Virus record (IMG/VR): IMGVR_UViG_2713896785_000018
Length of the DNA: 7,671 bases
Reading direction: 5' to 3' (one strand)
Origin: a virus
Lineage: Duplodnaviria > Heunggongvirae > Uroviricota > Caudoviricetes
The notes below the pieces were generated by a model. That model did no database searches. It saw only the letters and a program-made list of their open reading frames with translations, and was not told the DNA's origin. The position numbers were made by a program, and so were the translations under genes. Numbering within the stretch: the stretch's first letter is position 1; every line of letters begins with the position of its first letter. Below are positions 25-1,245 of this stretch, one piece after another.

Positions 25-738
25 TCAATAATCAAGCCCTTGCCTGGATACATATCTGTCTGGCGGGAAGCCATAATAGCGGTGAAATACAGAAATAAAG
101 TAGGACCTGCTTGAATAACCACATTTTTCTGCTACAGCCTGTCCATATCCATACCGGGAACATAACATATTTACAGCAACACGCATCCGCTCTTCCAGCA
201 ACAAGCGACTGAACATGCCCCCTTCATTTTTCAGTTTTGTCTTTAACAAACTCTCACTCATATGCAACTGTAGAGCAATCGCACCAAGCGTCCAGCTTGC
301 TGATATATCTGTCTGAATTATCGCCCTGACTTTGGCACTTATACTGGATAAACATCCACTTAAAAATAATAATATCCGTTCATCTGATTCAAACAGCGAC
401 AGGCATGCCATCATAAGAAACATATCCGTGGTATCTCCGGAAAATCTCTGGCTGGTAATTAAAGCCTCAGCCAACGCAGGGTTGTTGGGTTCCAGTGACA
501 GATAAAGCGGAACGTCAGTCAGATGAGTTCTTGTCAGCTTATGCTGAATTTCCAGATATTGACTTACTATGGAATGGTTTATATCGAAAATTTTAACTTT
601 GCCATAATGCATAAGGAAAAGCGCCCTGATGCATTTGGTGGCCAGAACGACTGAGCCGGGCTTAAGTGACAACGTATCCTTTTCAAGAAAAATATTAATT
701 GGGGAGCAAACCATGATAACTGAACAGACAACAACCAT
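25..738 (-). CDS. AraC/XylS-family transcriptional regulator, AppY-like (237 aa)
   Basis: Intact ORF. The C-terminal ~60 aa (RLLLEERMRVAVNMLCSRYGYGQAVAEKCGYSSRSYFISVFHRYYGFPPDRY) is a typical AraC-type double HTH. The N-terminus (MVVVCSVIMVCSP...) aligns from memory with E. coli AppY (MDYVCSVVFICQS...). The gene is AT-rich relative to its neighbours and has no obvious SD upstream. Confidence 0.8.
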   Translation of the reverse strand: MVVVCSVIMVCSPINIFLEKDTLSLKPGSVVLATKCIRALFLMHYGKVKIFDINHSIVSQYLEIQHKLTRTHLTDVPLYLSLEPNNPALAEALITSQRFSGDTTDMFLMMACLSLFESDERILLFLSGCLSSISAKVRAIIQTDISASWTLGAIALQLHMSESLLKTKLKNEGGMFSRLLLEERMRVAVNMLCSRYGYGQAVAEKCGYSSRSYFISVFHRYYGFPPDRYVSRQGLDY

Positions 739-943
739 TATAATTTTACTTTCATTAGCAATTGGTTAGTTCAATTATAGCCCCAAAAGGTAAATTATCA
801 TCAACACATAAGCAAAGGACTGACAGGTGCCGCCCCCCCACCAGCCGCCCATTTACCACAAATAAAAAGCCTTCAGGACTGAATGCGTCTGTAACAACCG
901 CACTGATAGTCTGCCAGACCCGCCATAACCAGCTGGGTCAGTA

Positions 944-1219
944 TTAACTGGCAGCGTTCGCGTGAAAGGTAAGTATTCTGCGCAATCTCCCCNNNNNNNN
1001 NNNNNNNNNNNNNNNNNNNNNNNNNNNNNNNNNNNNNNNNNNTAATTCATTAAACACCACTCTGGCGGTTTCTGTCATATCCTGCTGTTTTAGCATGTCT
1101 TTTTCCCTTTTCCGGTTAACGTGACATACCAATAACTCTTGTCGAAAAAGCCAGCAAGTTGAAAGACCGGTATTAGCAACCACCAGCGCGTTTAACGCCC
1201 CGTGCCGTTTTTCAGTCAT
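944..1219 (-). CDS. hypothetical small ORF interrupted by masked bases; alternative start at ATG 1096
   Basis: ORF from the track; its ATG sits directly after the terminator T-tract with no SD. An internal ATG at 1096 is preceded by AAGGGA. The N run at 993-1042 leaves the downstream frame unknown. No recognisable family. Confidence 0.15.
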   Translation of the reverse strand: MTEKRHGALNALVVANTGLSTCWLFRQELLVCHVNRKREKDMLKQQDMTETARVVFNELXXXXXXXXXXXXXXXXXGRLRRILTFHANAAS

Positions 1220-1245
1220 AAAAAAACCCGCAAAAAGCGGGCTCT
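1220..1245 (-). terminator. Rho-independent terminator downstream of the Q-like gene (candidate tR')
   Basis: Minus strand reads GCCCGC-UUUUU-GCGGG followed by UUUUUUU (plus-strand A7 at 1220-1226). GC stem with a 7-U tract, about 80 nt downstream of the 1321 stop. Confidence 0.7.

Follow-up and report, generated by a model that had tools for sequence, protein, structure and literature searches.

A probable psrA-type regulator gene in a conserved cassette behind the antiterminator gene of a lambdoid prophage

What kind of regulator does a lambdoid prophage carry directly behind its antiterminator gene, and from which promoter would it be read? The question is posed by positions 25–1245 of the viral record IMGVR_UViG_2713896785_000018, a stretch of Caudoviricetes DNA of 7671 nt (the window), where a first-pass annotation, drawn from the letters alone, had seen an AppY-like regulator of the AraC family as cargo downstream of the Q gene. 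In our view, the gene very probably belongs, as a psrA-type allele, to the Psr ('prophage-encoded secretion regulator') group within the GadX/GadW/YdeO/AppY clade, and it is housed in a rigid cassette with which the late operon opens in lambdoid prophages of the enterohaemorrhagic and enteropathogenic Escherichia coli (EHEC and EPEC) type. The finding is real but already known: a regulator family characterised before has been met again where it usually sits in the genome. The role of Psr has been in print since 2011–2015, and what the present analysis adds is anatomical.

The gene itself (Table 1) is an intact open reading frame (ORF) on the minus strand, and its 237-aa product carries a C-terminal double helix-turn-helix that matches Pfam HTH_AraC at 49.8 bits (cutoff 26.6) and HTH_18 at 37.6 bits (cutoff 33.6) over residues 155–230, the arrangement that defines the AraC/XylS family to which it had been assigned; its matches in the PDB include GadX, Rns and ToxT. 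The start codon at position 738 agrees with the N-termini of YdeO, AppY, GadW and PatE, and the gene evolves under purifying selection (dN/dS of 0.22–0.45 against three alleles). Its description as AT-rich holds in moderation, the GC content being 41.9% versus 50.8% for positions 1888–7671.

The case for Psr is carried by the two copies in O157:H7, to both of which the product shows high identity: 97.9% to WP_000261909.1 (present in PV15-279 and at 1,266,008–1,266,721 of EDL933) and 92.8% to WP_000301797.1, the copy on CP-933O/OI-57 of EDL933 (PsrB). The copy in strain 2013C-3277 is closer still, at 99.2%. The two O157:H7 copies are themselves 90.7% identical, in line with the published 90% for PsrA versus PsrB, and this agreement therefore supports the Psr identity. 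The CP-933O copy can be equated with PsrB (Z2104) because the 188-aa Q-like product of the window is identical to AAG56172.1 of EDL933 ('unknown protein encoded within prophage CP-933O'), and because the CP-933O locus falls inside the published coordinates of OI-57. All 17 of the amino-acid differences from this copy lie within residues 2–123; residues 124–237 are identical and, since the DNA-binding half is thus unchanged, the same targets are to be expected. The exact window protein is present on 36 E. coli contigs, and psr occurs in 726 of 5426 complete E. coli genomes, the median copy number being two; the psr-bearing genomes listed are mostly O157, O145, O121, O111, O26 and O103 strains. 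Confinement to lambdoid prophages, another mark of a Psr gene, is likewise seen: the sizeable ORFs of the window, all on the minus strand, make up the early-right/nin region of such a prophage, with replication, nin, rusA and Q genes in the same orientation, and all 80 psr loci surveyed on IMG/VR viral contigs, as well as all genome loci examined, are lambdoid. The window locus itself is a recombinant, in which a psrA-type coding sequence is joined to the Q (DUF1133 type) and the leader found with psrB in EDL933.

Among the K-12 paralogues found by BLASTP, GadW (34.7% identity, 124 bits) comes before AppY (28.7%, 112 bits) and YdeO (31.2%, 105 bits), and GadX matches in its C-terminal part only. 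These are the closest chromosomal relatives: the YdeO model aligns over its full length and the DNA-binding domain of GadX (3MKL) gives an E-value of 2e-18. Unlike psr, however, GadW, GadX and YdeO are not phage-borne, and the NCBIfam equivalog cutoffs are far from reached (105 bits vs 348 for YdeO and 88.8 bits vs 500 for GadX). The label 'AppY-like' therefore stands at the level of the subfamily and falls at that of orthology, with GadW the nearer protein. A regulator that mainly rewires anaerobic and starvation genes of the app/hya type, as AppY of DLP12 does, is accordingly the reading to which we attach least weight, and we regard it as extremely unlikely. It has in its favour a shared AraC subfamily, a full-length alignment and a common N-terminal M-x-x-VCSV motif; moreover, AppY is also prophage-borne, and it also directly activates gadE and raises acid resistance (PMC10057817). 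The identity to AppY is nevertheless lower than that to GadW or to PatE, no AppY model is found among the NCBIfam matches of the regulator, and AppY sits at the far end of DLP12, beyond the tail-fibre genes (after tfaX) and next to ompT, not after Q, so that neither the identity nor the prophage position is that of an orthologue; in contrast, identity to the characterised Psr proteins exceeds 90%. The inducing signals of anaerobiosis, phosphate or carbon starvation and stationary phase are described for AppY only (PMC10057817). PatE (Z0321, on CP-933H/OI-8) is a further prophage-encoded AraC-like activator of gadE and hdeA with the same domain layout, but it is 37% identical over 235 aa, short of the high identity expected of a PatE allele, and its place is not after Q but next to tail-fibre and pin genes, where a prophage remnant ends. 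The AppY study lists PsrB and PatE as parallel cases (PMC10057817).

PsrA and PsrB are reported to induce gadE and yhiF, and so to repress the type III secretion encoded by the enterocyte effacement locus (LEE); PsrB binds to the promoters of hdeA and gadE and increases acid resistance, and psrA contributes to persistence in sheep (PMC10877973, PMC8565820). Both PsrA and PsrB are credited in the literature with binding to and activating gadE and hdeA, with raised acid resistance and with an indirect repression of LEE type III secretion; by analogy, the window protein is expected to activate gadE and hdeA and to repress LEE type III secretion. The earlier guess that a prophage regulator at this site could rewire the host stress response fits this published action on the GAD acid-stress network and type III secretion (PMC10877973, PMC8565820). 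The Psr regulators are one prophage route into the core acid-resistance and virulence circuits of EHEC, with a bearing on infectious dose and gut colonisation.

The anatomical addition is that the terminator of the late operon is followed by a fixed cassette, in which psr is accompanied by a small winged-helix gene and by tRNA genes. Its order is an intrinsic terminator, a leader of ~125 nt, a 65-aa ORF, a TATAAT-type promoter, psr and tRNA(CAU). The small ORF lies upstream of psr in 80/80 of the IMG/VR loci and tRNA(CAU) downstream in 79/80, always on a single strand. At least four types of antiterminator occur with the cassette: the upstream Q is of the 123-aa PF06530 type in 49 loci, DUF1133 in 20, a protein of about 250 aa in four and PF06323 in five, and a CPBP protease gene intervenes between Q and the cassette in 18 of the 80. 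A terminator of the form CCCGC-loop-GCGGG-T(5 or more) stands 120–129 nt before the ATG of the small ORF in 69 of the 76 loci in which that codon was located; an equivalent is annotated in SfV. At the other end, 28 nt separate the psr stop codon from tRNA(CAU), and a strong terminator follows tRNA-Arg. Within the late operons of the relatives, the sequence of genes is Q, small ORF, psr, tRNAs, then TerB or nanS-p, then holin. PsrA and PsrB of O157:H7 (Z1789 and Z2104; Tree et al. 2011 and Yang et al. 2015, through the reviews PMC10877973 and PMC8565820), also of 237 aa each, have the same small ORF–psr–tRNA cassette in lambdoid prophages; the difference is that psrA there follows the 123-aa Q and a CPBP protease gene, whereas the window has the DUF1133-type Q.

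The regulator had been placed in the classic moron position, where stx sits in Stx phages. This is right in that the gene is cargo between Q and the lysis genes, in late-strand orientation, in all the related loci that were examined, but the placement is off by one slot. In the Stx2a (yecE) and Stx2e (phiP27) phages, SfV and mEp460, the slot after the small ORF is held by a DNA methylase gene, which is followed by tRNA genes and stx in the Stx2a and Stx2e phages and directly by the holin in SfV and mEp460. Like stx and other morons of lambdoid late operons (PMC7547250), psr is a late-strand gene placed between Q/tR' and the lysis genes, behind a presumed short pR'–tR' leader, and the only convincing terminator ahead of it is the putative tR' described below. 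Unlike stx, which is downstream of the tRNAs (between them and nanS-p), it is upstream of both tRNA(CAU) and tRNA-Arg, in the methylase slot, and unlike stx2 it has a conserved candidate promoter of its own. On comparison of these loci, psr is thus recurrent late-operon cargo, one slot upstream of the stx position. Homologues at greater distance (63, 58 and 40% identity) are likewise found between Q and holin, the 58% one downstream of the tRNAs. In phiSTEC1575-Stx2k (L012, 4959–7793), a psr homologue with 89% identity occurs between Q and stx2k, followed by three tRNA genes and then the toxin; any late transcript that reaches stx2k must therefore contain psr, and the cassette can share a late transcript with stx2k. 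Just after stx2B, on the opposite strand, the same phage also has a gene for an IraM-like anti-adapter, which places two stress-network modulators beside the toxin.

As the first-pass annotation had it, the regulator lies downstream of a Q gene and its terminator, in the orientation of the late transcript. The Q-like product scores 349 bits with DUF1133 and 33 bits with Phage_antitermQ (Pfam); it also matches PHROG 753 ('anti-termination protein Q-like') and, at an E-value of 5e-4, the phage 21 Q structures 6P18 and 6JNX. Its stop codon is followed after 71 nt by the terminator hairpin, which by analogy would act as tR' in this prophage. The hairpin is clear on folding; a pattern scan for terminators missed it, both in the window and in the near-identical draft contig DADUDU010000011.1 (L013; about 8490–8520), probably on account of an A-rich run upstream that lets the stem extend through the U-tract. 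The sequence between the Q stop codon and the hairpin is common only to loci with the same Q type, and homology with loci bearing other Q genes starts at the hairpin. Two candidates from this region were set aside. A match to isrK, the Gifsy-1 RNA from an antitermination-controlled promoter, falls short of the gathering score (19.8 bits vs 50; 1221–1294, minus strand) and owes most of its bits to the terminator, so that the pR'–tR' leader is given no small RNA name; and a pR'-like TTGCTT-17-TTCAAT over the Q stop codon, picked out by eye only, is too weak to be claimed.

Between the terminator and psr, the locus is richer than it had seemed. Psr had been called the only gene between the terminator and the edge of the window, and positions 739–1219 had been described as without a convincing gene and perhaps regulatory; they are mostly taken up by a conserved small gene and its leader. 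The gene is invisible in the letters of the window because a 50-N gap there replaces 24 bases and breaks its frame. Four such runs of exactly 50 N occur (993–1042, 2255–2304, 2617–2666 and 5394–5443), at which near-identical sequences have 24, 86, 117 and 215 nt, respectively; they are fixed-length gap placeholders, and ORFs and frames called across them are therefore artefacts. L013 fills the gaps and is 99.6–100% identical to every piece of the window; for positions 1–1400, the best match in a complete genome is only 97.7%. The small ORF is intact in L013 and L001, the L013 reading being MLKQQDMTETARVVFNELSVTEPATVGEIAQNTYLSRERCQLILTQLVMAGLADYQCGCYRRIQS. It matches PHROG 331 at 127 bits and, weakly, Pfam TrmB (E = 0.002) and other winged-helix models, and it is under strong purifying selection: dN/dS is 0.09–0.17 in nine of ten pairwise comparisons, the tenth, at 0.30, resting on four substitutions only. 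The same ORF directly follows Q in Stx2a, Stx2c and Stx2e phages, SfV (orf47) and mEp460. A 79-aa frameshift form is found in 8 of the 76 IMG/VR loci; the window type is intact. A 1-nt deletion is present in the ORF in the psrA loci L009, L010 and L106 (O157:H7, and strain 2013C-3277), where the annotation gives a frameshifted pseudogene of the TrmB family.

The leader of ~125 nt between the terminator and the small-ORF ATG (8540–8666 in L013) has a core, CTTGCTGGCTTTTTCGACAAGAGTTATTGGTATGTCACGTTAACC, that is nearly invariant over eight lambdoid contexts with different Q genes, and it is more conserved than the ORF downstream of it. It matches no Rfam family, and RNAalifold gave no covariation support for a fold (one compensated pair, with a positive covariation term), on which result a conserved RNA structure was discarded. 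A longer, 106-aa version of the ORF from an ATG at 1219 was also dropped: the whole of it matched PHROG 331 (161 bits) and tblastn matches spanned residues 5–106, but elsewhere its upstream part is in another frame, lacks a start or carries stops, and the similarity there is due to the conserved non-coding leader. The region between the small ORF and psr shows no significant RNA structure (z = +0.95), and a plus-strand ORF at 762–947 has no family match.

How, then, would psr be transcribed? In lambda and Stx phages, pR' is constitutive, its transcripts end at tR' in lysogens and Q permits them to read on (PMC7547250). On this model, a constitutive late promoter in the lysogen would be halted at the terminator, which would shield the cassette, and psr would be transcribed from its own promoter, about 35–40 nt upstream of the ATG. 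The best candidate for such a promoter, as we infer from its conservation, is a TATAAT that starts exactly 41 nt before the psr ATG in 80/80 IMG/VR loci and is kept in the 63%-identity homologue, where the upstream gene is different. The psrA-deletion phenotype in the reviews likewise suggests Q-independent expression (PMC10877973, PMC8565820); these reviews are silent on whether prophage induction was absent. After induction, Q-modified RNA polymerase would pass the terminator and co-transcribe the small ORF, psr, the tRNA genes and the lysis genes: promoter and terminator scans and folding found no structured element, strong terminator or opposing gene between tR' and psr and, since nothing stands in its way, the modified polymerase would be expected to continue through the small ORF, psr and the tRNAs. 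The insulation that could have overturned the read-through proposal is thus missing from the late promoter region to psr, tR' itself excepted. Overall, expression in lysogens most likely comes from the conserved promoter of psr itself, and Q-dependent read-through is plausible on architectural grounds. We found no paper, in the literature searchable here, that measures Q-dependent or induction-linked expression of psr.

A bolder proposal joins the two modes in one regulatory module: psr would be expressed from its own promoter in the lysogen, and on induction, a burst of Psr and winged-helix protein from read-through would reset GAD acid resistance and type III secretion in those cells of the population that are induced, ahead of their lysis, with the leader or the small protein modulating psr or the late genes. 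We consider this rather unlikely as it stands; if true, Stx2k-type phages would tie an acid-resistance and type III secretion regulator to toxin expression on one transcript. The more serious competitor, to which we allow appreciable though less than even probability, is that psr is expressed from its own promoter only and came to lie after Q as a side effect of the shuffling of modules at a recombination hot spot, and that any read-through would have no physiological role, given that cells lyse on induction or that the prophage is defective. The invariant TATAAT and the deletion phenotype cited above are in its favour; homology between loci breaks exactly at the terminator, as is typical of a module junction; and many such prophages are degraded, with insertion sequences and pseudogenes in L010 and L106 and a nonsense-mutated rusA in the window. 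What it accommodates less readily is that strand and order are kept in 80/80 loci with four Q types, that nothing insulates psr from read-through and that, in the Stx2k phage, a pR' transcript reaching stx2k must cross psr. A third possibility, that psr is silent cargo, repressed by H-NS or decaying and devoid of a current role, seems very improbable to us. Moderate AT-richness (41.9% GC) and the frameshift of the neighbouring small ORF in some psrA loci could be read in this way, but the psr ORF is intact, its dN/dS of 0.22–0.45 and invariant DNA-binding domain speak for constraint, it is usually held in two copies by the genomes that carry it, and phenotypes are published for both mutants and overexpression (PMC10877973, PMC8565820).

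Several observations weigh against our interpretation of the gene as a psrA-type allele with a promoter of its own and access to the late transcript. The names PsrA and PsrB are attached here through reviews, position and identity. The reviews place psrA (Z1789) on OI-50/CP-933N (PMC10877973, PMC8565820), yet the potC-adjacent, OI-50-like prophage of the re-sequenced EDL933 genome (L002, 1,625,001–1,675,000; with nleL, espN and espK) has no psr homologue, and the psrA-type copy of that genome, at the coordinates given above, belongs to a yccA-adjacent prophage (L106, 1,245,001–1,295,000) instead; the discrepancy may reflect an assembly problem in the EDL933 genome of 2001. As to expression, promoter-like sites in the region are not enriched over shuffled sequences (5 vs 3.6 ± 1.8 expected), the psr promoter being a consensus match, and the pR' of the DUF1133-type Q could not be located with confidence in the region 1250–1320. 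Additionally, rusA has an in-frame TGA at 2190–2192 (minus strand) where L013 has CGA (Arg18), and is a pseudogene in this copy; the prophage, which the window holds only in part, may be non-inducible or defective. No new kind of system is involved; given the fixed anatomy, it can readily be put to the test whether Psr is boosted by prophage induction.

Table 1. Features of the psr locus and of the remainder of the window, in order of position
Feature	Positions	Strand	Basis
Promoter-like site TTGATT-17-TATTAT over the psr stop codon	7–35	−	Pattern scan
psr gene, 237-aa AraC/XylS regulator, probably a psrA-type allele	25–738	−	ORF, Pfam, identity to O157:H7 copies
Small ORF–psr intergenic region, almost invariant between psrA and psrB loci	739–872	−	Alignment
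Candidate psr promoter ATGATA-16-TATAAT, 10/12 matches	774–801	−	Pattern scan
65-aa winged-helix (TrmB-like) ORF, broken by the assembly gap	873–1096	−	L013, PHROG, Pfam, dN/dS
Assembly gap placeholder, 50 N	993–1042		24 nt in relatives
Conserved non-coding leader of the small ORF	1097–1219	−	Alignment of eight lambdoid contexts
Intrinsic terminator, stem GCCCGC/GCGGGU, loop UUUUU, U7 tail	1220–1249	−	Folding
Q-type-specific segment, Q stop codon to terminator; presumed pR' start and short leader transcript	1250–1320	−	Locus alignments
Q-like antiterminator gene, DUF1133, distant Q21 family	1321–1887	−	Pfam, PHROG, PDB
Hok-family ORF	4062–4274	−	ORF list
DnaC-like gene	6828–7574	−	ORF list, annotation of relatives

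A tRNA(CAU) gene begins about 5 nt past the left edge of the window, and the promoter-like site over the psr stop codon lies upstream of it. Psr genes are described as associated with Pch (PerC-family) regulators and effector loci. In the loci L001, L005 and L106, PerC-family genes occur a few kilobases downstream of psr; the window ends before that region, as does L013.

Further from psr, the window contains an O-like/DUF1627 gene and several small nin-type ORFs, also on the minus strand, and a DUF968 gene and rusA stand between a YgiW/BOF gene and the Q-like gene. The YgiW/YdeI (BOF) gene (3598–3942, minus strand) is a second item of cargo in the nin region; its product is a secreted stress-tolerance protein, annotated in relatives as 'NirD/YgiW/YdeI family stress tolerance protein'. 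The nin region additionally holds a complete hok/sok type I toxin–antitoxin locus (4062–4386, minus strand), with an Rfam sok match of 113.5 bits at 4212–4386.

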